From: Bacteroidota bacterium
GTDB taxonomy: Bacteria; Bacteroidota; Bacteroidia; 2-12-FULL-35-15
Length of the DNA: 64,000 nucleotides
Assembly (NCBI GenBank): GCA_003151815.1
Contig: PLYN01000058.1
Location: 27,811 to 91,810, forward strand
Reading direction: 5' to 3'
The notes under the pieces were generated by a model. That model searched no databases and had not been told where the DNA came from. It saw only the letters and a list, made by a program, of their open reading frames with translations. The first letter of the stretch is position 1. Each line of letters begins with the position of its first letter. The translations under genes and the position numbers were made by a program. Below are positions 11,840-46,569 of the stretch, piece after piece.

Positions 11840-11944
11840 TAATATTTCAAAACATTGCAATGATGAATAAATAATTTTTCATTGATTGTTGACGTACTAA
11901 TTTATCATTTCTCAAAGTAAATTTAGATTCTAAACCTATCAACT

Positions 11945-12235
11945 ATGTACATCTACGATACCGTATCAGAAGCCGTTAACGACCTTACAAAACGTGGCTA
12001 TACACATAACTTCAAACCTTGTTCGGAGGGTATAGAGTGTACTGAACTTAATCTGAAACTCTCTCCTGAGAATTTCAAAATAAAAGAAACTTATCGTTTC
12101 GAGGGAATTACGGATCCTGCTGATGAGGCTATTGTTTATGCCATCGAATCAAATAATGGAATAAAGGGAGTTTTGGTGAATGGATATGGTATTTATTCTG
12201 ATAGCACCACAGATGCGATGGTTAGTAAGTTATAG
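11945..12235 (+). CDS. conserved hypothetical protein
   Basis: 96-aa ORF with no overlapping competitor. No motif that I can assign. Confidence 0.5.
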   Translation: MYIYDTVSEAVNDLTKRGYTHNFKPCSEGIECTELNLKLSPENFKIKETYRFEGITDPADEAIVYAIESNNGIKGVLVNGYGIYSDSTTDAMVSKL

Positions 12236-29802: not shown

Positions 29803-30756
29803 ATGATGACCGCACTTTCCAATAAACATTCTTACAAAGTTATAAGTCTTTTGTTGAAGACCGTTATTTTTATTCTTTCTATTTGGTATATATTCCAAAA
29901 ATTAACGAATACAAATGTTGCTCTGAATTTTGATGAAATCATATCAAAAATCTATTCACCTTATTTTTTTATCGCATTGCTTTTGGTTGTTTTAAATTGG
30001 GGAATTGAAGCTGTTAAATGGAAATATCTGATTCAAAAAATGGAGCTCATCTCCTATTCAACGGCTCTTAAATCAATACTATCTGGAGTTACTATCAGTA
30101 TATTTACACCTAACAGAGTTGGAGAATTTGCCGGCAGGGTTTTTTATCTGAAAAGCACAGATAAAGTAAAAGCAACAATGATAAGCCTTACAGGAAGTAT
30201 GTTTCAACTTTCAGTAACCATTTTAGCAGGAATAACGGCATGTATCTTTTATTATTATCAGCATAAAAACGAACCCGTTATTTTAAACTTTATATCTTTA
30301 AATAATTTATTGTTGTTACTAATTACACTTGCTCTCCTTCTATTTTCAATAATATTTATCTATCTAAAAAGAAATTCATTATCCCATCGAATAAAGAATG
30401 TATTTTTTTTATTCAATTCAAAAGAGATGTTTAACACTTTTGCACTTTCGCTACTGCGATATTTGGTTTTTTCATTTCAATATTATTTGGTTCTTCTGGT
30501 ATTTGGTATCGATGCAGGATTGATCAATTCTTTTGTATTAATTGCAATAACATTTTTTGTTACCTCTGCCATACCAACATTTGCACTAACCGAATTAACC
30601 GTTAGAGGAGCGTCATCCGTATATTTTTTCAGCACAGTTACTAATGATACTACATCAATTATAACAGCCTCAATAGTAATTTGGATCATCAACCTTGCTA
30701 TACCGGCAATCATAGGAGGGGCATTTATTTGGAATCTTAATTTTTTTGAAGATTAA
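29803..30756 (+). CDS. UPF0104 / lysylphosphatidylglycerol-synthase-TM-region (flippase-like) membrane protein
   Basis: About 8 TM helices. The pattern around IFTPNRVGEFAGRVFYL is typical of the LPG_synthase_TM family. Confidence 0.75.
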   Translation: MMTALSNKHSYKVISLLLKTVIFILSIWYIFQKLTNTNVALNFDEIISKIYSPYFFIALLLVVLNWGIEAVKWKYLIQKMELISYSTALKSILSGVTISIFTPNRVGEFAGRVFYLKSTDKVKATMISLTGSMFQLSVTILAGITACIFYYYQHKNEPVILNFISLNNLLLLLITLALLLFSIIFIYLKRNSLSHRIKNVFFLFNSKEMFNTFALSLLRYLVFSFQYYLVLLVFGIDAGLINSFVLIAITFFVTSAIPTFALTELTVRGASSVYFFSTVTNDTTSIITASIVIWIINLAIPAIIGGAFIWNLNFFED

Positions 30757-30759
30757 AAA

Positions 30760-31929
30760 ATGATGGGACAACTCTTTTTAATCATTATTACTATTATAAC
30801 AATTATCTGTTTTGCATACATAATTTTAATTGCTTCTTATTGTTATGCATGGATAAAAATAAAATCGCCTATCATTAACCCTAATGTTTTAAAAACATTG
30901 GTAACAGTAATTATAGCCGCTAGAAATGAAGAAGATAACATTGAAAATTGCCTTACCTCTATCCTCCATCAATCCTACCCATTGGAAAATATGGAAATAA
31001 TTGTTGTTGATGATGCATCTGAAGATACCACCAATTCGAAGATTCAGCAGTTTTGTGATACATATAAAAATATCAAATTAATTACGCTCAACAAAAATTC
31101 AAACCTTTTAGGAAAAAAAAATGCTCTCAATGCTGCTATTAAAGAAGCAAAAGGCGAATTAATTGTTACAACCGATGCTGATTGCATAATGGGTAACAAT
31201 TGGTTAAGTATAATGGTGAGTTATTATAAGGAATCGCAAGCCAAGATGATAGTGGCACCTGTATGTTTTTACAACGAAAAAACAGTTTTTGAAAAAATGC
31301 AAAGCCTCGAATTTATGGCGTTGATGTTGAGCACTGGCGCTTCGTTGTATTTTAATAAAGCCATAATGTGCAACGGAGCAAACCTGGCATATTCAAAAAA
31401 GGTTTTTTATGATGTCGGTGGCTTTGAAGACATTGACCAACAGCCTTCGGGCGATGATGTATTGCTGATGTATAAAATCGCAGAAAAATACCCGGCAGGA
31501 ATACAGTTCCTGAAACATAGAGAGGCGATCGTTTACACAAAAGCTAAATCAACAGTAAGTGAATTTATTAATCAACGAAAGCGTTGGGCTTCAAAGGGAT
31601 TTAACGTCCTAAATGGAGAAACGAAATTGGTTTCATTGATTGTTTATTTATTCAATACCTTACTTTTAATTATTGCTGTTATAAGCCCATTCTATTTCGA
31701 AAATCAGGTCTTCCATCTTTCATTATTTAAAATTTGTCTTATTCTTTTAGGAATTAAATGCTTATTTGATTTTTTGTTACTATTTTTATCAACATCCTTT
31801 TTTAAAAAGAAGCGTTTTTTAATTTATTTCTTGCCTGAACAAATTTTATATATAGCATATATCATGATGATAGGATTGCTTGGTTCAATTGGTAAATATG
31901 AATGGAAGAATAGAAATATAAACAGATAA
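30760..31929 (+). CDS. membrane-embedded family 2 glycosyltransferase with QxxRW motif
   Basis: VTVIIAARNEE, TDADC (DxD) and QRKRWA. One N-terminal TM helix and several C-terminal ones. Starts 3 nt after the upstream stop. Confidence 0.8.
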   Translation: MMGQLFLIIITIITIICFAYIILIASYCYAWIKIKSPIINPNVLKTLVTVIIAARNEEDNIENCLTSILHQSYPLENMEIIVVDDASEDTTNSKIQQFCDTYKNIKLITLNKNSNLLGKKNALNAAIKEAKGELIVTTDADCIMGNNWLSIMVSYYKESQAKMIVAPVCFYNEKTVFEKMQSLEFMALMLSTGASLYFNKAIMCNGANLAYSKKVFYDVGGFEDIDQQPSGDDVLLMYKIAEKYPAGIQFLKHREAIVYTKAKSTVSEFINQRKRWASKGFNVLNGETKLVSLIVYLFNTLLLIIAVISPFYFENQVFHLSLFKICLILLGIKCLFDFLLLFLSTSFFKKKRFLIYFLPEQILYIAYIMMIGLLGSIGKYEWKNRNINR

Positions 31930-33180
31930 ATGAGCAAAAAAGACGATAAATATGATTCACATTCACTATCATACTATACGTGGCTACGCTTAAAAAAAAA
32001 TAAGCTTGCTATGTTTGGTTTAATGGTTATAGGTCTTAGCATGCTAACAGCTTTACTTGGTTTTTCTATTACCCCTGATTCAACACCCAACGCAAACGAT
32101 CAACTACTTGAACTATCAAAAAAACCACCTGGTTTTAAAATTCAGATGCTTGAAATAAAAAAAAATGAAGCAACACATAAAGTAAATTTTTTTTATAAAA
32201 TGATGTTTGGTGAAGTAAGCGACTACCGTTCTATACCCTTTTCTTCTTACCGATTTGATGGAACAGATATTGTTTGTGTAGAATATACCGGAAACAATAA
32301 GCGGGTTGATAGCGAAATAAAATTTAATATAGCTGATGTTTTGTATGCAATAAACTATGATACGCCTATTAAAAACAATGTCAAGGAAGGCTATATCGAA
32401 TTTTACGAATTGGGCAGCAATAAAAAAATCAGGAAATCGATAACCGAATTACGCAATGAAATCATAGCTGATAATATCATCACCAAAAAATTTATTTTAG
32501 GTACCGATCCTGCAGGACGTGATTTATTAAGCCGTTTAATGATTGGAATAAGAGTTTCTTTTTCTGTTGGTTTTGTCGCCGTATTTATCTCCGTATTTAT
32601 TGGTGTTTTGATGGGTGCATTGGCGGGCTACTACCGTGGCTGGGTGGATGATGTAATCATTTGGTTTATCAATGTGGTTTGGTCTGTACCAACACTATTA
32701 CTTGTTATTGCCATTACATTGGCATTAGGTAAAGGATTTTGGCAAGTATTTATTGCAGTTGGCCTTACGATGTGGGTTGAAGTAGCACGCGTAATTCGTG
32801 GGCAAATTATGAGCATACGAGAAAAGGAATTTGTGGAAGCAGGAAGAGCCTTAGGATTTTCGAATTTCAGAATCATTTTTCGCCATGTATTGCCCAATGT
32901 AATGGGACCGGTAATAGTTATTTCGGCTGCCAATTTTGCTTCAGCGATATTAATTGAAGCTGGTTTAAGTTTCCTTGGCATCGGTGCCCAGCCACCGACA
33001 GCCTCTTGGGGCGCTATGATCAATGCGCATAGAGGTTATATTATAGGTGATGCTCCTTACCTTGCATTTGTTCCCGGAATAGCAATCATGATAATGGTAC
33101 TTGCGTTTGTTTTGCTTGGCAATGGCTTGCGCGACTCTATGGATACCAAAGTTGTTGATGAAGATCAGACAATGTATTAA
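31930..33180 (+). CDS. ABC transporter permease, DppC/OppC family, with a long extracytoplasmic insertion
   Basis: EAA-type motif EAGRALGFSNFRIIFRHVLPN. About 140 residues lie between TM1 and TM2. The start abuts the upstream TAA. Confidence 0.8.
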   Translation: MSKKDDKYDSHSLSYYTWLRLKKNKLAMFGLMVIGLSMLTALLGFSITPDSTPNANDQLLELSKKPPGFKIQMLEIKKNEATHKVNFFYKMMFGEVSDYRSIPFSSYRFDGTDIVCVEYTGNNKRVDSEIKFNIADVLYAINYDTPIKNNVKEGYIEFYELGSNKKIRKSITELRNEIIADNIITKKFILGTDPAGRDLLSRLMIGIRVSFSVGFVAVFISVFIGVLMGALAGYYRGWVDDVIIWFINVVWSVPTLLLVIAITLALGKGFWQVFIAVGLTMWVEVARVIRGQIMSIREKEFVEAGRALGFSNFRIIFRHVLPNVMGPVIVISAANFASAILIEAGLSFLGIGAQPPTASWGAMINAHRGYIIGDAPYLAFVPGIAIMIMVLAFVLLGNGLRDSMDTKVVDEDQTMY

Positions 33181-33196
33181 TCACAATTATTTCAAA

Positions 33197-33982
33197 ATGG
33201 AATACAAAAACAAACAAAAAATATTACGAAAAAAATTGCTCTCGCTTTATTTTGAAGCGAATGCAGGCCATATAGGATGTTCTTTAAGTTGCATTGATCT
33301 ATTAATTGCTTTGTTTGAAATAAAGACAGTCAGTGAACGGGTAATTTTATCGAAAGGACATGCTGCTGCGGCTTTATACACCATATTAAATTCGACCGGG
33401 GAAATTAGTGATGAAACCTTGGCAACTTTTTATAAAAACGGAACCAAATTATCAGCACACCCATCTGCAAATTTGTTCACCAACATCCCGTTTGCTTTAG
33501 GTTCTTTAGGACATGGATTTCCAATTGGATGTGGAATAGCTTATGCGAATAAACTTCAAAACAATTCAGAAAATGTATATGTTCTTATGTCTGACGGTGA
33601 AACAAACGAAGGTACAACATGGGAAGCAGCACATTTTGCAGTTGCAAAAAAACTGGATAATATTGTTGTGTTGATAGATAAAAATAAATTACAAGGTTTT
33701 GGCTTCACCAAGGATATTTTAGGTGATACCGCAGATATTAATAAATGGAAAAGTATAGGATTTGATATTATTGAAGAGGATGGGCATGATGTTGAAAAAC
33801 TCTTTTCAAGTATCAACCTTCTCAAGAATAAAAAAAATGGAATGCCCAAATTAATTATTGCCAACACGGTAAAAGGCAAAGGTGTTAATTTTATGGAAAA
33901 TAAAATGGAATGGCACTATTTGCCAATGAATGAAGATATGTATAAAAAAGCTTTATCATCAGTAGAAGAAAATTATGCGTAA
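33197..33982 (+). CDS. transketolase, N-terminal (TPP-binding) subunit
   Basis: GHIGCSLSCIDL, SKGHAAAALY, GSLGHGF and MSDGETNEG. I prefer the ATG at 33197, because the ORF-track start overlaps the permease. Confidence 0.85.
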   Translation: MEYKNKQKILRKKLLSLYFEANAGHIGCSLSCIDLLIALFEIKTVSERVILSKGHAAAALYTILNSTGEISDETLATFYKNGTKLSAHPSANLFTNIPFALGSLGHGFPIGCGIAYANKLQNNSENVYVLMSDGETNEGTTWEAAHFAVAKKLDNIVVLIDKNKLQGFGFTKDILGDTADINKWKSIGFDIIEEDGHDVEKLFSSINLLKNKKNGMPKLIIANTVKGKGVNFMENKMEWHYLPMNEDMYKKALSSVEENYA

Positions 33983-34880: not shown

Positions 34881-36848
34881 ATGGGCGAAATCAAAGAAAA
34901 AATACAACAACTACAAGGTCCCATTTTTATTTTTGGGGCCAGCGGATTTATTGGTGCTAACTTATTAAAAACTATTTTAACGTATCGTAAAGATTGTTAT
35001 GCTATAACTCACAACCCCAGATCTGCTTGGCGTTTAAAATTATTGGAAATCCCTTCTGAAAACATTTTACATTGTGATATCAATTATAAAAAATCCATTG
35101 AGTCCATATTTAAAGAACATACCCCACAAACTATTTTTAACCTTTCGGCTTACGGCGCATATAGTAAACAAAACAATACGAGTTTAATATATGAAACGAA
35201 TATTGTTGGTACTGTAAATATCCTCGAAATCTGCAAAAATATTAAAGCGTATATCCATGCCGGAAGCAGTTCGGAATATGGACTAAACAGCGATAACCCA
35301 AAAGAAAAGGACGAGTTAATACCTAATAGTCATTATTCTGTTTCTAAAATAACCACAGGGTATTTATTATCATTTTATGCACGTTTTCACAATTTACCTT
35401 GTTTAAATTTAAGATTATATTCAATCTATGGACCCTGGGAAGAACCTGATAGATTAATTCCAAAAATGGTTGAATGTGCCTTATCAAAAACATATCCTCC
35501 TTTTGTTAATCCTTCTACTTCACGTGATTTTGTTTATATTGATGATTGCGTTGAAGCATTTATCGATGCCGCCAATAATGTTAATAAGGAAAACTCCGGT
35601 CAATCAATAAACATAGGTAGCGGACAGAAAACTACTTTAGAGAAATTAGCAAATACATGTCAAAAAATATTTAATATTGAAAAAAATCCTATATGGGGAA
35701 ACATGCCTAACAGAACTTGGGATACTGCTGAATGGGTTGGTAATTATGGAAAAGCTAATGAATTAATTAATTGGCAACCAAAAACAAACCTTGAAGACGG
35801 TCTGAAAAAATATGCAGAATGGCAAAAAGAAATAAATTATACAAACAAAATATTGCCGGCTTTTCAATCTCCTAAAAAACTTGCTAAAATCAGTCCGATT
35901 ATCGCCTGCTATAAAGACGCGCAGGCTATACCCTTTATGTATAATCGTTTGGTGGAAACATTCCATAAAATAGGCTGCAATTATGAAATCATATTTGTAA
36001 ATGATAACTCACCGGACGATACAGAAAAGATACTTCAGGAAATTTGCGAAAAAGATATGAATGTTATTGCCATAAAGCATTCACGAAATTTTGGTTCTCA
36101 AGCAGCCTTCGTTAGCGGAATGGAGATTGCTACCGGAGATGCTGTTGTATTAATGGATGGGGATTTACAAGACCCTCCGGAAATGATTGCTCAATTTTTT
36201 GAGCAGTGGCAAAATGGATACCAGGTTGTTTATGGGAGACGAGTAAAAAGAGAAGCTTCTATGTTTATGAATTTTGCTTACAAGACTTTTTATAAAATAT
36301 TCAGTAAGATGTCTGATATTACTATTCCTCAAAATGCCGGGGACTTTTCTTTAATTGACACAAAAGTAGTTGAGCACATTGTTAATTTACCGGAAAAAGA
36401 ACAGTTTTTAAGGGGCTTAAGAGCTTGGGTAGGTTTTAAACAAACAGGAGTTGACTACATAAGACCAGAACGAATGTTTGGTGTTAGTACTAACAACCTA
36501 CGAAAAAATATATGGTGGGCTAAAAAAGGAATTTTATCATTTAGTTATTTACCGCTTGAGATTATGAGTTATACAGGTTTTTTCTTAACAATAGCTTCCT
36601 TTTTAGCCATCGCATTTCAAGTGGTTGGAAAAATAATGTATCCGGATTTACCGCATGGTATTCCAACCATTATTGTATTGGTATTATTTTTTGGTGGAGT
36701 GCAATTACTTGCTATTTCACTCATCGGCGAATATTTATCAAAGGTGGTTGATGAAACAAAATCTCGTCCGAAATTTATCAGAGATAAAGTAATTATTAAA
36801 GGACGAAGTATTGAAACGAACAGCGAATTGAAAAACCTTTTGAAATAG
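34881..36848 (+). CDS. fusion protein: NAD-dependent epimerase/dehydratase (SDR) + polyprenyl-phosphate glycosyltransferase (GT2, GtrB/ArnC type)
   Basis: Residues 1-320 form the SDR (GASGFIGANL, YSVSK). Residues ~336-655 form the GT2 (VNDNSPDDT, DGDLQDPP) and end in two TM helices. The ATG abuts the transketolase TAA. Confidence 0.8.
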   Translation: MGEIKEKIQQLQGPIFIFGASGFIGANLLKTILTYRKDCYAITHNPRSAWRLKLLEIPSENILHCDINYKKSIESIFKEHTPQTIFNLSAYGAYSKQNNTSLIYETNIVGTVNILEICKNIKAYIHAGSSSEYGLNSDNPKEKDELIPNSHYSVSKITTGYLLSFYARFHNLPCLNLRLYSIYGPWEEPDRLIPKMVECALSKTYPPFVNPSTSRDFVYIDDCVEAFIDAANNVNKENSGQSINIGSGQKTTLEKLANTCQKIFNIEKNPIWGNMPNRTWDTAEWVGNYGKANELINWQPKTNLEDGLKKYAEWQKEINYTNKILPAFQSPKKLAKISPIIACYKDAQAIPFMYNRLVETFHKIGCNYEIIFVNDNSPDDTEKILQEICEKDMNVIAIKHSRNFGSQAAFVSGMEIATGDAVVLMDGDLQDPPEMIAQFFEQWQNGYQVVYGRRVKREASMFMNFAYKTFYKIFSKMSDITIPQNAGDFSLIDTKVVEHIVNLPEKEQFLRGLRAWVGFKQTGVDYIRPERMFGVSTNNLRKNIWWAKKGILSFSYLPLEIMSYTGFFLTIASFLAIAFQVVGKIMYPDLPHGIPTIIVLVLFFGGVQLLAISLIGEYLSKVVDETKSRPKFIRDKVIIKGRSIETNSELKNLLK

Positions 36849-36855
36849 AAATTGT

Positions 36856-37635: not shown

Positions 37636-39333
37636 TTACTTCCATTCGTAAATATAAATATTATAGTTTGGCTCAGGTTTATAATTAGCCAACTCATCTC
37701 GCCATACGTATTTGCTATGCTGCCCATCTATCATATCAACCAATCCTATAAGTTTGTAGTGTTCATTTACATATTTATTGGCCCATTCAAAAACATAATG
37801 ATCCACATTCGGCTGAACCATTAATGAAATTGGATGATCAAAATAAATTAAATACCTCGGTTTTGCTTTTTCAGTATCTCTAACAAATTCTCTCTGCCAA
37901 TCTTTATGCATTGGTACGTTTGTTACAAGTGCAGTAAAATAAGCGTGCCGCGACGGGGATTTCTTCTTTGTATAAAAATAAATTTGAGGTTCAGATCCAA
38001 TTAGCACTATATTATCTTCCGGTTTTGAATTTGCATTGATATAATTACCGATCTCCATTGCTTCTGGAAATGGGTTATTACCATACACTTGTCGTAAAAT
38101 TAATTCATAATTAGGATGAAAATAATATGATTTTAGCGTTTTTATATGATAAAAAACAAGAATTGAGAAAATAGATAAGTAAATATATTTGATGCTTAAT
38201 TTGCCAAGTTTAAATTTATTCTCAAAAATAGTAATTACACAATGATAGGTTAATCCTGCAACAACAGCTAAACCAGGTATAATTTGAATCCAATAATGTC
38301 CGTAAAAGAAATAGCCCGGCACTATAGTTAAAAATGAACATGCTAATAAAGTAATTCCATAAACTTTTAATTGATATGGGATAGGGCGGAATAAACAAAC
38401 AGCTATAGCTAATATTGAATGATACCAAAATAATTTATGATTTTGTAATATAGCATCGCGTGTATATCCAAAATACTTAATCCCTTCATCAAAAGTTATT
38501 AATTGTGAATATTGTTTTGAATATTCGAATGTCCAGTATAACATTTCATCAAAACCACCTTTTATTTTTATGATTAAAAAGAAAACGCAAACTATGGTAA
38601 TTCCCCCAAGCGAATAAGCAAAAATGTTTTTAAAAAATTCTTTATATTTCTTTTCCTTTTCAAATAAAAACTCTAAAAAAATTATTACTCCTCCCCATAC
38701 AGCAACAAAAACTGCAGTTGTCTTAATCATAACGGCCATGGCCATACTCATGCCGGTAAATAAATAAAGCAGAAAATGTTTTTTGCTTCGAGCATGTGCA
38801 TATAATAATAAACCTAAGCTTATAAATAACGCTACACCATGTTCTGATTGAACTGTAAAACCACTTAAACTTGGCGTTAATGAAACAAATGCCATTGTTG
38901 CTGCAGAAATAATTCCTGCGATAGGACTAAACATTTTTTTAGATGCGAAATACACAAATAGTATGGATAAAATATTAATCCACATAAAACCTGTATGAAC
39001 CCCTTTTACTGTTTCCCCAAAAAAATTAATTATGAATGCGTATAAATAAAAAATACCCGGAAATTTCATTTCATAAAAATCTTTATATGGAACTTTACCC
39101 TCGAGTAAAAGTTCACCCATATAGCTATAAATGCCTTCATCGCGTTCAAACGGGATTAATAAAAATTTTGAACGAATAGTGTAAACTAAAAAAACAAGTA
39201 TTAACAATAATGCTGTGCAAATTTTTTCCTCTAATGAAAAAGAAAATGTTTTACCGGCAATTGTAAAAGAACTGCTCGATTCGATGTTTCGAGTAATTTT
39301 TTGAGACTTATTATTACTAATTGCTTTTGCCAT
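37636..39333 (-). CDS. GT-C fold glycosyltransferase (ArnT / PMT_2-like)
   Basis: More than 12 TM helices. The acidic first-loop motif FERDEGIYSYMG...PYKD is typical of ArnT/PMT-family enzymes. Soluble C-terminal domain. Confidence 0.7.
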   Translation of the reverse strand: MAKAISNNKSQKITRNIESSSSFTIAGKTFSFSLEEKICTALLLILVFLVYTIRSKFLLIPFERDEGIYSYMGELLLEGKVPYKDFYEMKFPGIFYLYAFIINFFGETVKGVHTGFMWINILSILFVYFASKKMFSPIAGIISAATMAFVSLTPSLSGFTVQSEHGVALFISLGLLLYAHARSKKHFLLYLFTGMSMAMAVMIKTTAVFVAVWGGVIIFLEFLFEKEKKYKEFFKNIFAYSLGGITIVCVFFLIIKIKGGFDEMLYWTFEYSKQYSQLITFDEGIKYFGYTRDAILQNHKLFWYHSILAIAVCLFRPIPYQLKVYGITLLACSFLTIVPGYFFYGHYWIQIIPGLAVVAGLTYHCVITIFENKFKLGKLSIKYIYLSIFSILVFYHIKTLKSYYFHPNYELILRQVYGNNPFPEAMEIGNYINANSKPEDNIVLIGSEPQIYFYTKKKSPSRHAYFTALVTNVPMHKDWQREFVRDTEKAKPRYLIYFDHPISLMVQPNVDHYVFEWANKYVNEHYKLIGLVDMIDGQHSKYVWRDELANYKPEPNYNIYIYEWK

Positions 39334-40267
39334 AAAAATTAATTAAGGAATGATTTTTTATACAATCATAGGTTTCTGAAATGCCTTGAGATATTGGAGT
39401 AAATTTAAAATTAGGTACTACATTAATAAGCTTACTATTATCAAGATCAATCGCAGTATTATCACTTTCTCTTTTTGGGGTATAAACGATTTCAAAAGGT
39501 TCAGAAACAACTTTTTTAATCAAATCAACAATTTCATTAATTGATAAGGTATCATTTGATGAAAGGTTATATGTTTCGGATGTGTTTATATCTCTGATTA
39601 ACGATAGACTCAATAATTCGGCTACATCTTTTACATAAATATAATTACGAATATTAGAACCATCTCCAAAAATCTTAATTTCATGATCTGAAATAATTTT
39701 TTCTAAAAAAGTATTTATTAAACCTAAACCTTTTGACGTGTTTTGTCCTGCTCCGTATACATTAGAAATCCGATAAATATCTGAGTTAATACCATATTTT
39801 GTTTTATAGTATAATAAAAAATTTTCAATTGCTAATTTTGTAATTCCGTAAGGAGAGAAGGGATTTTTATTGAAATTTTCGTCAACCTTTTTATGAGTGG
39901 TACCATAAACTGTACCTGCACTGCTCAAATACACTATCTTTTTTATACCTAATTTGGACACAGCTTCCAAGAAAGTTAAAAATGGAACTAAATTTTTCTG
40001 TACATCTACTAATGGGTTTTCCCAGCTATTAGCCGGAATTGTTTCGGAGGCCAGATAATAAACAAGATCTATATTTTTAAAATAGTTTGCGTTTTCAACA
40101 TTATTAAGCAAATTTATTTGATTATATTCTATAGGAATATCTAAAATACTCTCTTTACTTCTACCAAATAAATGAAGATTAATATTGTCTTTTTTTAATA
40201 ATAAATTAGTTAAGTGACTGCCAATAAAACCATTACTTCCTATTATAGCTACGTTGATCTTATTCAT
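39317..40267 (-). CDS. NAD-dependent epimerase/dehydratase (SDR)
   Basis: GSNGFIGSHL Rossmann motif and YGITK catalytic YxxxK. 4-nt overlap with the upstream GT2 and 17-nt overlap with the downstream GT-C. Confidence 0.85.
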   Translation of the reverse strand: MNKINVAIIGSNGFIGSHLTNLLLKKDNINLHLFGRSKESILDIPIEYNQINLLNNVENANYFKNIDLVYYLASETIPANSWENPLVDVQKNLVPFLTFLEAVSKLGIKKIVYLSSAGTVYGTTHKKVDENFNKNPFSPYGITKLAIENFLLYYKTKYGINSDIYRISNVYGAGQNTSKGLGLINTFLEKIISDHEIKIFGDGSNIRNYIYVKDVAELLSLSLIRDINTSETYNLSSNDTLSINEIVDLIKKVVSEPFEIVYTPKRESDNTAIDLDNSKLINVVPNFKFTPISQGISETYDCIKNHSLINFYGKSN

Positions 40268-41190
40268 ATGTTGATGGTTTTTTCAATAACAACATACGGA
40301 CGTTGGCGTACTTCGTCGTAAATTCTTACAATATATTCACCAATAATACCTAAACAAATTAGGATTAACGAACTAAAAAAAGAAATTAATATTGCCAAGG
40401 TAGCAAAACCTTTAGCTTCAATTTTGTGAACAAAATATCCATAAATTGTATTTAAACTGTACATACACGCAAAACTAAAACCTACTAGCCCTAAAACTGT
40501 AATTAATCGAATTGGAGCACTTGAAAATGAAAATATACCATCTAAAGCAATTTTTAATAATTTTTTTAAGGTATAACCGGATTGCCCATCCACTCTATTA
40601 GCACGTTCATACTCAACACCAATTTGCTTAAAACCAACCCATGCTCTGATGCCTCTTAAAAATGGATTTTGCTCTTGTAGTTTAAGCATATTATCCACCA
40701 CGTGCTTTTTCATAACGCAAAAATCACCGCTATCAATCGGTATGTGAATATCGCTCATACCTTTTAATATTTTATAGAAACTACTATATGCCAAACGTTT
40801 TGTAAAAGATTCTTTACGTTTTTTTCTAACCCCATAAGCAACGTCATAGCCATTATCTAAAAATGTAAAAAAGTGCGGGAGTTGAGAAGGGGGATCTTGC
40901 AAATCATCGTCTATAACAGCAATATAATCGCCTGTGCAGTGGCTTAATGCAGTTTTTACAGCAATTTGATGGCCGAAATTTTTTGATAATTTTATTCCCT
41001 TTATATAGCTGTATTGTTTACTAAGTTCTTCGATTTTTTCGTAACTTTTATCACGGCTACCGTCATCTACTAAAATAACTTCCAAATTCCAGTTAGATTT
41101 CTGTCTTTGAGTATCAATAGCTTCTAGCAGCAAATTCATAAACGCTGCCGAATTGTATATAGGTACTAGTATCGAAATCTTTTTATTCAT
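40264..41190 (-). CDS. polyprenyl-phosphate glycosyltransferase (GT2, GtrB/ArnC type)
   Basis: ISILVPIYN, VDDGSRD and DDDLQDPP, with two C-terminal TM helices. A clear paralog of the GT2 half of 34881-36848. Confidence 0.85.
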   Translation of the reverse strand: MNKKISILVPIYNSAAFMNLLLEAIDTQRQKSNWNLEVILVDDGSRDKSYEKIEELSKQYSYIKGIKLSKNFGHQIAVKTALSHCTGDYIAVIDDDLQDPPSQLPHFFTFLDNGYDVAYGVRKKRKESFTKRLAYSSFYKILKGMSDIHIPIDSGDFCVMKKHVVDNMLKLQEQNPFLRGIRAWVGFKQIGVEYERANRVDGQSGYTLKKLLKIALDGIFSFSSAPIRLITVLGLVGFSFACMYSLNTIYGYFVHKIEAKGFATLAILISFFSSLILICLGIIGEYIVRIYDEVRQRPYVVIEKTINI

Positions 41191-41275
41191 TTATTTATTT
41201 TTAATACTTTTTAGTTAAAATCTAACATATCGTAGTTACGACTTACATGCTAATTGTTGATTTATCAAACTTAGC

Positions 41276-42223
41276 TCATTTATTAAGCTTAGTTGCGACT
41301 TTTGGGCTGAAATTATTTCTTTTAAAATATTTAAAAACAAACGAAAAGTAATATTGAACTCTATTTATAACACCCATAAGTGATTTATCGCTAAAAGGCA
41401 CATCGCCCCAAGGTGAAAGTTTTTTATAATGTAAATAGTTTTTTTTATATGGTGAAGGGTCGAGCCAAAACCAAGGTTTAAAAAGTCTATTGGCATAATG
41501 AATTATTTTAGGATTATTATATTCATTAAAAATCTCTTCTTTTGAATAAAATCTAAAATCAGCATTTCCTAGTCCGTATTTAACTAAACCTAACCTTGCA
41601 ATCACATTCCATCTATAAGGCACTATTTGCCAGGTATCTTGTAATATAATATTTAAGGAATCCTGATCGGGATATTCTAATAAATGCTCATTATCAATTT
41701 GATATTGATAGGCCTTTTGAGAAATTTTATCTTCTTGCCATTTTTTACAATCTATTAACATCATCCCTGCATTAAATGATTTTGTAAGATTAATTTTTTC
41801 TAAATGTTTTACCGGGCACAAAACCTCATAAGATGCTGATATGATATTCCCTTCCTGATTAACATTATACAACTCGGTTACATCCCCCTCAATGATCATG
41901 TCGCAATCTAAATACAACATTTTATCGATCAACAATGTATCTAATAAAAAGTATCTGTAATATGTGGCTTCGCTGTATATTTCAAATATTTTTAGTTTTT
42001 CAAAATATGCTCTATCAGGTTTTAAGAAATGTAATTTACAACCAAATTTAATTGCAACTTCTTCAAATCGATTTATATCTTCCGGAAGTATTCCTCCATC
42101 TACAATATAAATATCAAATAATTCCGGGTATTTTGTGTTTGACATTAGGGAATAAATCATTATTCCTAAGTGTTGGGCGTAGTTTTTATCAGTTGCACAA
42201 CCAATATTATATCTCGTAGTCAT
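41276..42223 (-). CDS. family 8 glycosyltransferase
   Basis: GCATDKNYAQHLG, YLDCDMII (DxD), FNAGMMLID and H-x-x-N region. Confidence 0.8.
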   Translation of the reverse strand: MTTRYNIGCATDKNYAQHLGIMIYSLMSNTKYPELFDIYIVDGGILPEDINRFEEVAIKFGCKLHFLKPDRAYFEKLKIFEIYSEATYYRYFLLDTLLIDKMLYLDCDMIIEGDVTELYNVNQEGNIISASYEVLCPVKHLEKINLTKSFNAGMMLIDCKKWQEDKISQKAYQYQIDNEHLLEYPDQDSLNIILQDTWQIVPYRWNVIARLGLVKYGLGNADFRFYSKEEIFNEYNNPKIIHYANRLFKPWFWLDPSPYKKNYLHYKKLSPWGDVPFSDKSLMGVINRVQYYFSFVFKYFKRNNFSPKVATKLNK

Positions 42224-42227
42224 AAAT

Positions 42228-43121
42228 TTATTTCTTTTTATAAATGACTAATGCAGTTCTTTTGCCAACGATATCATTAAAAAATTTAAACGAAAATTTT
42301 AAAATTGACGAGGTAAAATTACTGTTTATTCCCGTTTTACGTTTAAAATATTGAATGAGATAGTCAAAGCCTTCGTATTTAAAATCTTGCACTTGTAAGT
42401 CAAAATGGGAAGCCATTTTTGTTAAACTATCTTTGTTCCATAATCCCATATGATGGGGCGGTAAGTTTAATGTATGGTACTTATCGTATTTCATAAAATA
42501 AGGTTCGTTATTAGGCACTGCAATAATTAAAACACCATCTTTTTTTAGCATTTTCACCATGCAACTTATAAATTCACCGGGCTGTTTAACATGTTCTAAA
42601 ATTTGGAATCCGGTAACGTAATCAAACTTCCCAATATTTTTTTCGGCAAAAATTTCAATAGGTTCATTACTAAATTCAACACCTTTGTTCTTTAATAAGT
42701 CAGCTGCAAAATCACTTTTATCAAGTCCATAGCAATGACAATTTTTTCCATTTAACTCATCAAAGAAACTTCCCGACCCACAGCCAACATCCAAAACGGA
42801 TGAATTATCCTTAATCATATTAGCACCCTCTTTAAACTCCCATTTTGTATCTTGATACAATCTATTTTTATTACTCTTATATAAATCAATATAAAACTTA
42901 TTATCGCCCTCTATGGATAATGGATAATAAAAACGAAATCCTGTTTCGTTACATTGCATGATTTTTACCTCGTTCACATTTTTAAACAGATACGATATAT
43001 TTAAATTATAATTTTTAAAATATTTTTTTATAATTTTTCCAACATTTAAAACTTCAATTTCTTTTACTGTAGCGTTTTTTATTAAGGTGTTTTCTATCAT
43101 TTTATAAAAATAATTAAACAT
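42228..43121 (-). CDS. class I SAM-dependent methyltransferase with ~100-aa N-terminal extension
   Basis: VLDVGCGSGSF, FDYVTGFQILEHV and DGVLIIAVPN. Confidence 0.75.
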   Translation of the reverse strand: MFNYFYKMIENTLIKNATVKEIEVLNVGKIIKKYFKNYNLNISYLFKNVNEVKIMQCNETGFRFYYPLSIEGDNKFYIDLYKSNKNRLYQDTKWEFKEGANMIKDNSSVLDVGCGSGSFFDELNGKNCHCYGLDKSDFAADLLKNKGVEFSNEPIEIFAEKNIGKFDYVTGFQILEHVKQPGEFISCMVKMLKKDGVLIIAVPNNEPYFMKYDKYHTLNLPPHHMGLWNKDSLTKMASHFDLQVQDFKYEGFDYLIQYFKRKTGINSNFTSSILKFSFKFFNDIVGKRTALVIYKKK

Positions 43122-43132
43122 TTAAACATATG

Positions 43133-43140
43133 CAAAATTA
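43133..43140 (-). promoter_or_regulatory. candidate -7 box (TAatTTTG on minus strand) for the 43121..37636 operon
   Basis: Plus-strand caaaatta lies 12 nt upstream of the ATG at 43121, implying a very short leader. Confidence 0.3.
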
Positions 43141-43242
43141 TAAAATCTATCTTAGTTCTAACTTGATAGTGAAAACAATCAATTAATTTGCTATGATACT
43201 TAAATAATAGCTATTTTCGTTTTCTTAAATAAATGAAATTTT

Positions 43243-43938
43243 ATGTCTGAATTTCTTAATCCAAAACTAAGTTCTCCTTTTTATTTTACAAGAAAAGGGT
43301 TATATGGAGCTGCAATTATTTTTTCCAAATCTGCTAAAGGTGGGCGTTTATTGGATTTTGGCTGTGGTTCAAAACCATATAGATCTTTATTTAAGGTAGA
43401 TGAATATATTGGAATAGATTATGAAAATGAAGGGCATCCTCATGACGAGGAGCAAATAGATATTTTTTATGATGGCGGTAAATTACCCTTTAAAGATGCC
43501 GAATTTGATTATGTTTTATGTACAGAAGTGTTTGAGCATTTGTTTGATCTAGATGATAAACTTGTTGAATTTAATAGAGTTCTTAAGGATAATGGGTTGA
43601 TGTTTGTGACTTGCCCTTTTGTATGGAACGAACATGAAATACCTTATGACTATGCGCGATATACTTCGTTTGCATTAAACGATAAATTTAAAAAGAAAGG
43701 TTTTGAAGTTGTATCATACAATAAAGGGGGGACTTTTATTGAAACGTATACACAAACTTTCTTTTTATATTTTTCGAGAAAAGACACCAAATTTAAAAGT
43801 GATAAAATCGGTATATTTAAAAAGAGTGTAATTTTTATGGTTAACTTATTTGGAAAAATAATGAACAAACTATTGCCGAATAACGATTCGCTTTATTTAA
43901 CTAATATTTACGTTGTAAGAAAATCAAAAAACCTATAA
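43243..43938 (+). CDS. class I SAM-dependent methyltransferase (paralog of 36856-37608)
   Basis: LLDFGCGSKPY, FDYVLCTEVFEHL and IPYDYARYT align with VLDIGCGQSPY, FDAIICTEVLEHV and IPYDFFRYT of the other copy. Confidence 0.75.
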   Translation: MSEFLNPKLSSPFYFTRKGLYGAAIIFSKSAKGGRLLDFGCGSKPYRSLFKVDEYIGIDYENEGHPHDEEQIDIFYDGGKLPFKDAEFDYVLCTEVFEHLFDLDDKLVEFNRVLKDNGLMFVTCPFVWNEHEIPYDYARYTSFALNDKFKKKGFEVVSYNKGGTFIETYTQTFFLYFSRKDTKFKSDKIGIFKKSVIFMVNLFGKIMNKLLPNNDSLYLTNIYVVRKSKNL

Positions 43939-43959
43939 TGTTTCAAATTATTTAAAGCA

Positions 43960-46569
43960 ATGATACAAGTATTTAATATAAAAAAAGAATATTTAAGATA
44001 TTCCATCATGACATGGTTTGGAATATTAGTTGCCATAATATCAAGTAAAATCATTTCATCAGTTTATGTAACTAATATTGAAGATGCAAATAAAATAGCC
44101 CAAGATATTTTACTAAATCCAGCAATGGCGCAGCCAGAACCTATGGAGAAAGCGGTTTTTTTTGGAGGTATAATTATAACAGTACTATCTTTGTTTTTAT
44201 TTTATTTTATTTTAGATCGTTTTTTAAAAAAAAATGACAATGAGATAAAAGATTCATTGTTTAATATTGTTACTACTATTAACGTTGTAATTAGCTGTTA
44301 TTTCCTGTACTATTGTTTTATTACCGTTAACCCTTTTTTTGCAGCACCTCAAAATTCGCATGATGCTCTTGCTAAAACCAATTTCGATTTTTATTTTTTT
44401 CAAACTTTTTTATATAAGCGATTAGTATTATACACTATTATTTTATTCCCACTATTGGCTTTTCTATTAATTAAAAACATTAAACTTTCAGAGCACCTTA
44501 ATTTATTATTGAAAAAAACTGTATTTGTTTTATGTCTTGGTTTAAGCGTATTAGCCTCAGCCATATCAATTTTTAAATTCCCTTATACCTATGAAAACAA
44601 ATACGATTTTAATGCTATTTATTATTCAGTAGTTCAGGTATATAATGGCTTCCCATTATTAGTAGATGGTTTTACAAATACGTATGGATTGTACCCACAT
44701 TTTGTAATGCCAATTTTAAAATTAACCGGATTAAGTGTATTAAGTTTTTCAATGACAATGAGTATTTTATTGTTTTTTTGTTTTTGTTTTTTGTACTATT
44801 TCATGAATAAAATCATTAATAACAAACTCATTTTATTGTTTGGTTTTTGTTTAGTGTATTTTATGTGCTATTCATTTCAAACAACCACATTAAATTATGA
44901 TGCCGCTTTCTCTTGCCATCCTGTGCGTTGGATTATGCCATTATTACTATTTGCATACATAGTTTATTATATGTCAAATCAAATGAAAGCTAATTTTATG
45001 TTTAAGAAGTGGCGTTTTTTTAAAGTGATAGAAATCATCCCTATTAAAATAGTATTCTTTTTTGTTTTTGCATTTGGCGTATTATGGAACCCTGACTTTG
45101 GATTTTTTTCTTTTTTAAGTTTAATCGCTTTTTATGTTTTTTATGAGTTTGATATAAATGAAATTAAAAAATCATTGATTCAGCTATTGTTTAATGTAAT
45201 ACAAGCATTTTTTTTATTAGTAATAGCATTTATTTTGTATTATGTTTATATAAAATTCGCATATCATCAAGCTCCCGATTTTTCTCTTTTATATGAAACA
45301 ATTAGTACTTATTCAGTAATTGGTTTTGGTATGCTTCCAATGCCAACAACCATGCATCCGTGGATGTTGATAGCATTGATTTATGGTATAGGTTGGGTTA
45401 TATCTATTATTAATTTTTTAAATAATCGTAAAACGCAATTTGCATTAGCTATTTTTGTTTTAACCTTTTTAGGAACTATCGGATTGTCTTATTACCAAGG
45501 CAGGAGCCATAATTGGCAATTAATGGTTTGTAACCTTTCTGCATTTATCTTATTGCCTATTTACGCGGATAAACTATTGATAACCGCAAGAGGACATAAG
45601 TTATTTATACCAATTTTTTCGATGTCACTCTTTGTAATTGCATTTGCTCCTTTTCAATTATTAGGAAGTTGGACTAAGCTACAGGAATTAGTGTTTACTA
45701 AAAAAGATAAAGCCATTAATCAAATAGAACAAAATCATATATATTCTACAGCCTCTGCAATTGATAAGTTATGTGAAGATGGAGAAAAAATATATATCCT
45801 ATCTGCCGATTATTATCAAGGGTTATATCACACTTTATCTAAAACGGCTTCGGTTGCTAATCCTGGGTTGGGCGATTTATATACTAAAAAACAATACGAA
45901 CTAATTATTGAAAAACTAAAAAATGAAAATCAAAAACTGTTCTTGGAACCTCAGTTTTACCGCCCAAAGGATACAAAATTATTAAACGTTATAGGAGCCT
46001 ATTACGAACTCAATGCAATTGAAAATATGCCGACATTGTATTATTATAAAAAAAGAGAGTTTGGTAAATATCAACCTAAATTAATAAATGATGCCAGCAC
46101 CCTTTTTTATATTAATACCAATGCAAATGGCAATGATAATTTTAAATTATATGAAGCTGCAGTAAAACCAATACAATTAGATAACGCATTTACTATTGAT
46201 GTTATCTTTACTTCACCTTCAAACATTATCACAAACATTAATACTGGTGGTACAATATTATCTAATTTAGATGGCTACAAAGGTTTTGTAGTTCAACAAC
46301 AAAAAGATAATCCAAGTCAATTCATTTTTGGATTTAAAGGCCGGGGGATTTTATGTAACGTTGAATTAAACAAACAAACAAAAATGACTTTTAAGGTAGA
46401 CGGCATAAATATTTCGTGTTATGTAAATGATATGTTGCAATCTAAATCAATGGTTACAGAGGTATTTGAAAATAGCCAACAACCTATTTGTGTGGGAAGT
46501 ATACAAAACATGTCGAATTTCTTTTTAGGAAATATTGATGAAATAAAAATATCAAATGGAGCTAAATGA
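43960..46569 (+). CDS. 869-aa polytopic membrane protein with C-terminal LamG-like (concanavalin A-type) domain
   Basis: About 14 or more hydrophobic helices over residues 1-560, then a soluble region. The C-terminal ~150 aa carry the LamG pattern (...MTFKVDGINISCYVNDML...PICVGS...FFLGNIDEIKISN). Confidence 0.7.
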   Translation: MIQVFNIKKEYLRYSIMTWFGILVAIISSKIISSVYVTNIEDANKIAQDILLNPAMAQPEPMEKAVFFGGIIITVLSLFLFYFILDRFLKKNDNEIKDSLFNIVTTINVVISCYFLYYCFITVNPFFAAPQNSHDALAKTNFDFYFFQTFLYKRLVLYTIILFPLLAFLLIKNIKLSEHLNLLLKKTVFVLCLGLSVLASAISIFKFPYTYENKYDFNAIYYSVVQVYNGFPLLVDGFTNTYGLYPHFVMPILKLTGLSVLSFSMTMSILLFFCFCFLYYFMNKIINNKLILLFGFCLVYFMCYSFQTTTLNYDAAFSCHPVRWIMPLLLFAYIVYYMSNQMKANFMFKKWRFFKVIEIIPIKIVFFFVFAFGVLWNPDFGFFSFLSLIAFYVFYEFDINEIKKSLIQLLFNVIQAFFLLVIAFILYYVYIKFAYHQAPDFSLLYETISTYSVIGFGMLPMPTTMHPWMLIALIYGIGWVISIINFLNNRKTQFALAIFVLTFLGTIGLSYYQGRSHNWQLMVCNLSAFILLPIYADKLLITARGHKLFIPIFSMSLFVIAFAPFQLLGSWTKLQELVFTKKDKAINQIEQNHIYSTASAIDKLCEDGEKIYILSADYYQGLYHTLSKTASVANPGLGDLYTKKQYELIIEKLKNENQKLFLEPQFYRPKDTKLLNVIGAYYELNAIENMPTLYYYKKREFGKYQPKLINDASTLFYINTNANGNDNFKLYEAAVKPIQLDNAFTIDVIFTSPSNIITNINTGGTILSNLDGYKGFVVQQQKDNPSQFIFGFKGRGILCNVELNKQTKMTFKVDGINISCYVNDMLQSKSMVTEVFENSQQPICVGSIQNMSNFFLGNIDEIKISNGAK

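Follow-up and report, generated by a model that had tools for sequence, protein, structure and literature searches.

The gene at positions 34881-36848 of the 64,000-nucleotide stretch analysed here (hereafter the window; contig PLYN01000058.1 of the Bacteroidota assembly GCA_003151815.1, positions 27,811 to 91,810 of the forward strand) encodes a short-chain dehydrogenase/reductase (SDR) fused to a family 2 glycosyltransferase (GT2). This fusion is a real and intact gene and an ordinary member of a widespread family, and in many phyla it is genetically locked to a diverged split transketolase (TK). The fusion may encode a bifunctional membrane enzyme forming the last cytoplasmic stage of a four-part sugar-tailoring cassette, in which the TK, the SDR/GtrB-type fusion and a methyltransferase would make a sugar modified with a two-carbon (C2) unit and loaded on a lipid carrier; to this reading as a whole we assign a probability of roughly 0.45. 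A sequence-only reading of the same DNA had drawn attention to the domain order of the fusion, which is reversed relative to a neighbouring gene pair. Within its family the fusion gene is ordinary, and interest attaches to the cassette, not to the domain order. The parts of the fusion are:

34881-36848, plus strand: SDR-GT2 fusion gene, 655 amino acids (aa), ATG to TAG, no internal stops
34881-35840, plus strand: extended-SDR domain, residues 1-320; Pfam Epimerase, with matches to PDB 4zrm, 5u4q and 6zl6
35841-35885, plus strand: interdomain linker, residues 321-335; modelled as a helix, conserved in part
35886-36848, plus strand: GtrB/ArnC-type polyprenyl-phosphate glycosyltransferase domain, residues 336-655; PDB 5ekp and ArnC 9hwj
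36549-36761, plus strand: two C-terminal transmembrane (TM) helices, residues ~557-586 and ~593-627, from AlphaFold2 (AF2) helices and hydropathy

That the open reading frame (ORF) joins an SDR to a GT2, as first proposed from the sequence, is borne out by an uninterrupted frame and by Pfam matches to both domains, and the motifs quoted at the time were located at residues 19-28 (GASGFIGANL), 152-156 (YSVSK) and 426-433 (DGDLQDPP). An AF2 model built on an alignment of 32 orthologues reached a mean pLDDT of 80.8 and a pTM of 0.68. With Foldseek, its two halves matched GtrB 9nyc (E 6e-23, TMt ~0.7) and UDP-sugar epimerases (E ~1e-20), and no solved chain spanning both domains was found (TMq at most 0.44). 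Databases name the fusion generically, either as 'NAD-dependent epimerase/dehydratase family protein' or as 'dolichol-phosphate mannosyltransferase', and neither half reaches an NCBIfam equivalog cut-off. A missing stop or assembly error at about 35840-35890 had been raised as a possibility, and A-rich runs at 35826-35880, which are frameshift-prone in principle, do lie near the junction. However, the junction DNA is free of stops and frameshifts, and the 120 best matches in a collection of 5.8 billion proteins, all from independent assemblies, are 624-666 aa long, contain both domains and are 59-91% identical. In the linker, F328 is invariant among the 32 orthologues and Y320, P326 and P331 are nearly so, with a helix predicted at residues 320-329. 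Since more than 100 independent assemblies encode the same continuous protein of 640-670 aa, with its frame and linker conserved, an assembly error is excluded, and the chance that the fusion is a sequencing artefact in which a stop was lost or a frame shifted between two genes is vanishingly small.

The evidence for a cassette comes from the genes that flank the fusion, in the window and elsewhere. In the window they are:

33197-33982, plus strand: cassette TK_N, the thiamine diphosphate (ThDP)/PP-domain subunit; Transketolase_N 6.4e-27, PDB 6yak 168 bits
33975-34880, plus strand: cassette TK_C, the Pyr-domain subunit; Transket_pyr and Transketolase_C, PDB 6yaj 110 bits
36856-37608, plus strand: class-I S-adenosylmethionine (SAM) methyltransferase; Methyltransf_11 and Methyltransf_23, separated by 7 nt (36849-36855) from the fusion stop

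TK_N and TK_C overlap by 8 nt, and the TAA of TK_C abuts the ATG of the fusion. The mechanically called TK_N ORF begins at TTG 33101 and overlaps an OppC-like permease gene, but because homologues are 262-275 aa long, the true start is placed at ATG 33197. A scan of one genome per prokaryotic species returned at least 594 matching stretches, and the locus counts that follow rest on the best 80 of these, all full length and 45-84% identical to the fusion. At least one TK subunit adjoins the fusion in 75 of the 80 loci, drawn from Bacteroidota, Pseudomonadota, Bdellovibrionota, Fibrobacterota, Lentisphaerota, Verrucomicrobiota, Acidobacteriota, Planctomycetota, Chloroflexota, Actinomycetota, Armatimonadota and the candidate phyla radiation (CPR). 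The gene order is TK_N-TK_C-fusion in 45/80 and TK_N-fusion-TK_C, the Spirosomataceae type, in 19/80. When neighbouring ORFs were clustered without supervision, TK_C (68 loci) and TK_N (64) ranked far ahead of all else, followed by class-I methyltransferases (46), acyltransferase-3 proteins (20) and PMT_2 glycosyltransferases of the GT-C class (18). A class-I, SAM-dependent methyltransferase is encoded within 6 kb of the fusion in 46/80 loci, directly downstream in 37 of these, with direct homologues of the window methyltransferase downstream of the fusion in 18. The window TK_N is 57-65% identical to TK_N genes adjoining fusion orthologues, and in five more loci (L038-L042) orthologues of TK_N and TK_C, 53-65% identical, flank the fusion. 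A GT-C is also encoded with the GT2: a PMT_2 protein (37636-39333) in the window, and PMT_2 or YfhO proteins beside orthologues. Finally, solo SDR orthologues, 48-53% identical, follow directly after TK_N-TK_C in Bacteroidota, Eisenbacteria and Patescibacteria, where a different, short GT2 comes next and YfhO-type GT-C genes stand alongside. The most constant unit is TK_N-TK_C-SDR, downstream of which either of two partners can stand, one of them the GtrB-type GT2.

The TK of the cassette appears to be a specialised enzyme. Elsewhere in the genome there is a second split TK that fits the Pfam model better (163 vs 94 bits for the cassette TK) and is presumably metabolic; because the genome keeps this separate, more canonical enzyme, the cassette TK is likely to be a dedicated one. 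When 17 cassette TK_C proteins were aligned with the genome's own housekeeping TK_C, the cassette proteins were seen to retain the cofactor-activating Glu of the AEQN motif and the His of THH, while Ser in DLxxS, His in SHAG and Asp in GEDG are replaced and the Arg of the GR block is variable. We take the replaced and variable residues to be those that, in the E. coli and yeast enzymes, bind the phosphate of the sugar phosphate and the 2-hydroxyl of the aldose. With these substrate-site residues lost, we infer that the cassette TK uses another acceptor, for example a keto group on a nucleotide- or lipid-linked sugar. As judged from the loci and this alignment, a split TK is conserved beside a redox enzyme, its ThDP-catalytic residues kept and its acceptor/phosphate site remodelled.

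These features bear on a simpler possibility, namely that the SDR is an epimerase or 4-oxidase that feeds the GT2 directly and that the adjacent TK has an unrelated, metabolic role. In its favour, sets of an SDR, a GtrB-type GT2 and a GT-C without any TK are established (the Pgf system, and the minus-strand unit of this window described below), and the nearest solved SDRs are 4-epimerases. However, a TK adjoins the fusion in those 75 of 80 loci across many phyla, with the fusion placed between TK_N and TK_C in some of the loci; sugar-phosphate-binding residues are gone from the cassette TK in a genome that has a more canonical one; and neither the fusion nor the cassette TK is present in the complete genome of a member of the same genus (G363). 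Because of this linkage, we consider direct supply improbable.

Our preferred reading of the cassette is therefore a tailoring pathway that ends at the membrane. The SDR would oxidise one hydroxyl of a nucleotide sugar to a ketone, and the TK would attach a two-carbon unit of the hydroxyacetyl type to that carbonyl, after which the reduced cofactor of the SDR could possibly reduce the new side-chain ketone. The methyltransferase would then methylate the product, and the GT2 domain, held beside the SDR, would place the completed sugar on undecaprenyl phosphate. Once flipped, the sugar would be passed by a GT-C to an envelope acceptor outside the membrane; the PMT_2 protein and an 869-aa LamG protein are the candidates in the window. 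Joining the SDR to the GT2 would hold a reactive intermediate close to the membrane enzyme. The proposal of the sequence-only reading that an SDR is tethered to a lipid-carrier GT2 in order to hand on such an intermediate is plausible, although its suggested cargo, a bare 4-keto or epimerised sugar, is less likely than a TK-modified one, because conservation across phyla links the split TK and the methyltransferase to the fusion.

Pfam matches the SDR half to Epimerase (residues 15-246, 4.7e-41) and GDP_Man_Dehyd (residues 16-310, 3.5e-37), and it has the hallmarks of an extended SDR, a Rossmann GxxGxxG at residues 19-25 (G19, G22, G25) and a Ser/Thr-Tyr-Lys triad (S129, Y152, K156), the latter contained in the signature G128-S-S-S-E-Y-G134 and in Y152-x3-K156. 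HMMER alignments put S129 opposite the catalytic Thr of 6zl6, a UDP-GlcA 4-epimerase from Bacillus. Two further motifs, R215-D216 and R278-x-W-D281, align with 'RDYVYVDD' and 'PRKGD' of the UDP-Glc 4-epimerase 4zrm, and R215, D216, R278 and D281 are invariant among the 32 orthologues, from which all invariant columns were taken (the SDR and GT2 motif table covers 28 distant fusions). We assume, from what is known of GalE, that these four residues bind the nucleotide; their match to UDP-binding blocks (R215, R278, D281) favours a nucleotide sugar as the substrate of the SDR. The closest solved SDRs are UDP-sugar 4-epimerases and their relatives (4zrm, 5u4q and 6zl6, ~97 bits each), and the domain fails the GalE equivalog (TIGR01179, 88 bits vs a cut-off of 262). 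A dehydratase or decarboxylase identity was also considered and rejected. The T-D-E pair of RmlB-type enzymes is absent, as the block reads S129-S-S-E132-Y-G and TIGR01181 scores 109 against a cut-off of 365; the T-S-E arrangement of ArnA-type enzymes is likewise absent, with a weak 31 bits for the ArnA-type model, far under its cut-off; and the signature Glu aligns one position past the dehydratase/decarboxylase Glu, on the following Val. The least confident region of the predicted SDR structure is the loop at residues 131-139, after the signature.

At the end of beta-strand 2 the fusion reads T43/H44, and the family has Thr, Ser or Arg where NAD+-dependent epimerases have Asp. The missing acidic residue hints at NADP(H) as the cofactor, which brings in another role for the SDR. 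It could be a finishing ketoreductase, as YerF is to YerE, that uses NADPH to reduce the side-chain ketone made by the TK just before the GT2 loads the sugar, with the acceptor carbonyl coming from elsewhere. Placement of the SDR gene after the TK genes would suit this order of events, as would the family-wide Thr/Ser/Arg, and reduction of ThDP-installed branches is known for C-4 branched octoses and in the YerE pathway. Nevertheless, the conserved cassette offers no other enzyme able to create the carbonyl acceptor, the closest structural relatives of the SDR are epimerases that oxidise their substrates transiently, and some NADP-binding SDRs, GDP-mannose dehydratase among them, oxidise too. 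We consider a purely reductive SDR unlikely, and retain the oxidising SDR as the first step of the proposed pathway.

The C-terminal half is, by homology, a GtrB/ArnC-type enzyme, a class whose members take a sugar from its nucleotide donor and transfer it to undecaprenyl phosphate on the inner side of the membrane. Pfam Glycos_transf_2 covers residues 340-499 (2.5e-27), GtrB 5ekp matches residues 336-633 (E 7e-68) and ArnC 9hwj matches with E 1.5e-31; among NCBIfam models, PgfS scores 237 bits and ArnC 141 bits, each under its cut-off. The motifs comprise the DxD D426-G-D428, G487-D-F489 and R511-G-L-R-A-W. D426, G427, D428, Q430, D431, P432, P433, G487, D488 and F489 are invariant among the 32 orthologues and are kept in most of the 28 distant fusions. 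Kyte-Doolittle windows of 19 residues above 1.6 start at residues 559-569 and 589-601, and these, the only strong hydropathy peaks, coincide with the AF2 helices at 557-586 and 593-627. Homology to solved structures, the AF2 model and hydropathy thus agree with the earlier description of a GtrB/ArnC-type GT2 with two terminal TM helices.

Some distant members of the family have one degenerate half. P0126, P0132 and P0133 have lost the DxD and GDF motifs of the GT2 with the SDR intact, and P0145, P0151, P0175 and P0235 keep the GT2 with a degenerate SDR; the degenerate halves may be pseudo-enzymes retained as anchors or scaffolds. Four other proteins of 466-538 aa (P0288, P0276, P0304 and P0322), encoded on long contigs, one of 5.29 Mb, consist of an SDR and a partial GT2 and may be variants without TM helices, or frameshifts.

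A membrane-anchored SDR could also act after transfer, on the sugar already linked to undecaprenyl phosphate, with the fusion positioning it at the lipid substrate. DprE1 and DprE2 act on lipid-linked pentofuranose. There is genetic evidence that a GalE-like SDR, ORF13 of Citrobacter youngae O2, acts on undecaprenyl-phosphate-linked ribofuranose (PMC11127046), and the retention of the SDR in P0126, P0132 and P0133 despite a degenerate GT2 looks as if anchoring alone were worthwhile. On the other side, the invariant R215, R278 and D281 match UDP-binding residues of UDP-sugar epimerases, the solo SDR orthologues are of a soluble type and are followed by a GT2 without TM helices, and both the TK and the methyltransferase are soluble cytoplasmic types. 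Action after transfer, the chief rival as regards the order of steps, is quite unlikely in our estimation, and the order preferred here places the SDR, TK and methyltransferase before loading.

Several points weigh against the proposed pathway. The cassette includes neither a gene for nucleotide-sugar supply nor a flippase of the GtrA type: no supply gene (e.g., UDP-glucose dehydrogenase) recurred among the neighbour clusters, and the genome, which is 76.6% complete, yielded no GtrA-family (PF04138) gene. No TK lies within 6 kb of the fusion in 5/80 loci. The solo SDRs are paired with a short GT2 that has no TM helices and only 25% identity, such that SDR-GtrB coupling is not universal. An NADPH-dependent reductase would likewise be compatible with the absence of an acidic residue where beta-strand 2 ends, and the 4-epimerases that are the nearest solved SDRs are just 23-28% identical, with oxidation without re-reduction being an assumption of the pathway. 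The chemistry, on the other hand, has a precedent in favour of the pathway, the only one found in the literature for the step that joins redox enzyme and split TK: an oxidoreductase and a TK encoded by split genes are proposed to attach a hydroxyacetyl group as a branch on a keto sugar when miharamycin and amipurimycin are made. A 2025 review describes that TK reaction as untested in vitro and ketone-accepting transketolases as uncharacterised (PMC12247030). A more specific version of the pathway holds that the cassette makes an undecaprenyl-phosphate donor bearing a so far undescribed methylated sugar, either C2-branched or chain-extended, and that this sugar decorates glycans or proteins of the envelope in bacteria from at least a dozen phyla, with a single nicotinamide cofactor bound to the SDR both opening the carbonyl and reducing the branch; in this detailed form we regard it as possible, though doubtful.

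Variants of the locus were also observed. In two loci (L046:7995-9829 and L048:8005-9845), the solo SDR is followed by a GT2 of ~225 aa with 'YTN(S/T)ART' at the expected DxD site, after which come a DUF4915 protein and one of ~313 aa that has no annotation, an arrangement that we interpret from its gene content as a second, undescribed version of the cassette. A contig labelled Patescibacteria (L049:5319-12618) contains two TK pairs back to back, one in the order TK-TK-SDR-short GT2 and the other comprising TK-TK-GtrB-like GT2 (44% identical to the fusion GT2) and a DegT aminotransferase, and the TK module therefore combines with different tailoring enzymes. In L055:8893-10587 and 19 similar loci of the Spirosomataceae-type arrangement, TK_C is followed by a protein of ~564 aa with no Pfam match, and an Acyl_transf_3 protein and a PMT_2 GT-C are present as well.

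The architecture is common but patchy. Just 3 of 401 genomes in an even sample of the phylum encode a full-length fusion. The best 80 stretches come from the taxa named above for TK adjacency together with Desulfobacterota and Firestonebacteria, and cultured carriers among them are Dyadobacter, Larkinella, Spirosoma, Siphonobacter and Taibaiella (Bacteroidota) and Methylobacterium cerastii (Pseudomonadota). A HMMER search of 1.84 billion representatives placed ~35-40 clusters (50% identity) of full-length fusions among the top 150, extending to ~27% identity. The suggestion that the fusion might be common and already characterised, with a known product, holds for its first part only: our literature search found neither a characterisation nor a product, and no study of the fusion or the cassette, the relevant material being domain-level mentions and the miharamycin proposal. 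One such mention is a 2026 paper that lists, by domain only, a methyltransferase-TK_N-TK_C-aminotransferase set in a polysaccharide cluster of Actinoplanes (PMC13390465).

Phyla are mixed at short distances on both the GT2 and SDR trees, and this intermixing fits spread of an accessory cassette by horizontal transfer. Solo SDRs nest within the clade of fused SDRs, and several fusion or fission events may have occurred. Origin of the fusion by read-through of an ancestral SDR-then-GT2 pair, as found in the solo-SDR loci, is unsupported, since the GT2 there is short, has no TM helices and is 25% identical.

Adjacent to the cassette, on the minus strand, lies the gene pair from which the reversed domain order had been deduced, together with a GT-C gene:

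40264-41190, minus strand: stand-alone GtrB-type GT2 (P0002) with DDDLQDPP; Glycos_transf_2 4.6e-32, PgfS 231 bits
39317-40267, minus strand: stand-alone GalE-like SDR (P0003) with YGITK; Epimerase 5.4e-43, TIGR01179 galE 119 bits, under the cut-off
37636-39333, minus strand: PMT_2/ArnT-like GT-C membrane glycosyltransferase, the last gene of the unit; Pfam PMT_2 4e-07

The GT2 and SDR are separate genes with a 4-nt overlap, as had been stated. Their description as paralogs of the fusion is right at the level of the superfamily, but the identities are low: P0002 is 36% identical to the GT2 half (E 8e-65) and P0003 only 22% identical to the SDR half (E 2e-6), which scores higher with two other SDR genes of the same genome. 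On a maximum-likelihood GT2 tree, 27 fusion domains from many phyla form one clade with three solo representatives (SH-aLRT 97), and P0002 is placed outside it in a clade of stand-alone GtrB proteins (97 and 99). The three solo GT2s within the fusion clade (P0147, P0158 and P0160) may be fragments. In the SDR tree, a long-stemmed clade (99) unites the fused SDRs with their solo orthologues, and P0003 falls outside it with other SDRs of the genome. The G+C content is 0.276-0.30 over 38001-46000, which spans the minus-strand unit of GT-C, SDR, GT2, GT8 and methyltransferase genes and the gene for the 869-aa LamG membrane protein, compared with 0.32-0.36 for the plus-strand cassette. From the trees, the locus can be described as two unrelated lipid-linked glycosylation modules that adjoin, and the two probably have separate origins. 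That the fusion arose when this neighbouring pair was recently duplicated or rearranged is ruled out by the 36% and 22% identities, the separate clades and the G+C difference. The earlier conclusion that the fusion is not a read-through of its neighbours therefore stands, although the argument from gene order gives way to separate clades and differing base composition; as fusion and pair belong to unrelated modules, the reversed order is uninformative and the 'reversed paralog' puzzle of the window dissolves. By its domain content, the translationally coupled GT2-SDR-PMT_2 trio is an ordinary three-component set of the Pgf/Gtr type. In a Moraniibacteriota locus (L101:~11250-12200), an SDR 34-36% identical to P0003 lies ~3.3 kb from the fusion gene of that locus, and SDRs of this type may travel with the cassette now and then.

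Upstream of the TK genes, a plus-strand unit at 29803-33180 encodes an LPG_synthase_TM protein, a multi-domain GT2 and an orphan OppC-like permease, and one of these three proteins may be a flippase. The gene at its head is:

29803-30756, plus strand: LPG_synthase_TM (UPF0104) membrane protein; PF03706 5.1e-16, candidate flippase

Known GtrB-type enzymes load ordinary sugars on a lipid carrier for the modification of surface glycans outside the cytoplasmic membrane. Members of the fusion family have such a loader joined to a redox enzyme and tied genetically to a dedicated TK, which points to a tailored surface sugar in many environmental bacteria, and Dyadobacter, Spirosoma, Larkinella, Taibaiella and Methylobacterium cerastii are carriers available in culture. 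If the product were identified, bacterial glycobiology would gain a sugar as well as a new use for transketolase chemistry, and the cassette would allow a first in-vitro test of ketone-accepting transketolases. If the more specific version of the pathway is true, the cassette TK would be the first transketolase-family carboligase assigned to the synthesis of cell-surface glycans.

Among known systems, GtrB (Synechocystis sll0501; 5ekp, 9nyc) is 36-39% identical to the C half of the fusion over ~300 residues, with the same GT-A fold, DxD and two C-terminal TM helices, and the GT-C genes near the fusion parallel the partners in GtrA/GtrB/Gtr* O-antigen glucosylation systems. In contrast to the fusion, GtrB has no N-terminal SDR and uses plain UDP-glucose, and its GtrA flippase was not found in the 76.6%-complete genome of the fusion. 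The Pgf system of Streptococcus mutans (PgfS, a GT-A; PgfE, a 4-epimerase; PgfM1/M2, GT-Cs) brings together the same trio of activities (GtrB-type GT2, GalE-like SDR and GT-C), and PgfS is the best NCBIfam model for both GT2s of the window (237 and 231 bits), although far under the cut-off of 500. However, the Pgf enzymes are separate and include no transketolase, and the minus-strand unit is closer to Pgf than the fusion is. The Arn pathway (ArnA with its C-terminal SDR decarboxylase, ArnB, ArnC and ArnT) shares the logic whereby an SDR makes a 4-keto nucleotide sugar that is tailored, transferred by an ArnC-type enzyme and passed to a PMT_2-type GT-C, whereas the fusion cassette lacks an aminotransferase, formyltransferase and deformylase and has a transketolase as its tailoring enzyme.

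In the three-component pentofuranose system of Citrobacter youngae O1/O2 (PPPRS, a MATE flippase, GT136 and the SDR ORF13), a precedent for GT-C enzymes fed by lipid-linked donors, a lipid-phosphate donor is tailored by a GalE-like SDR before export, and a GT-C with a carbohydrate-binding domain uses the lipid-linked pentofuranose donor (PMC11127046). The donor there is made from phosphoribosyl pyrophosphate by a UbiA-type synthase, the SDR is separate and no transketolase is involved. The yersiniose enzymes YerE and YerF, acting on CDP-4-keto-3,6-dideoxyglucose, offer a precedent in which a nucleotide keto-sugar destined for a surface glycan receives a C2 unit from a ThDP enzyme and ketoreduction follows, but YerE belongs to the decarboxylase (acetohydroxyacid synthase-like) superfamily and uses pyruvate, and its product goes to Leloir glycosyltransferases instead of undecaprenyl phosphate. 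Miharamycin and amipurimycin biosynthesis likewise pairs a redox enzyme with a two-gene transketolase on a sugar scaffold, and only 13 further candidates have been listed, all in Streptomycetes (PMC12247030). These are secondary-metabolite clusters of Streptomyces with no lipid-carrier GT2, whereas the fusion cassette occurs in at least 12 phyla; a ketone acceptor of the kind proposed there would explain why the cassette TK has lost the residues that bind aldose and phosphate.

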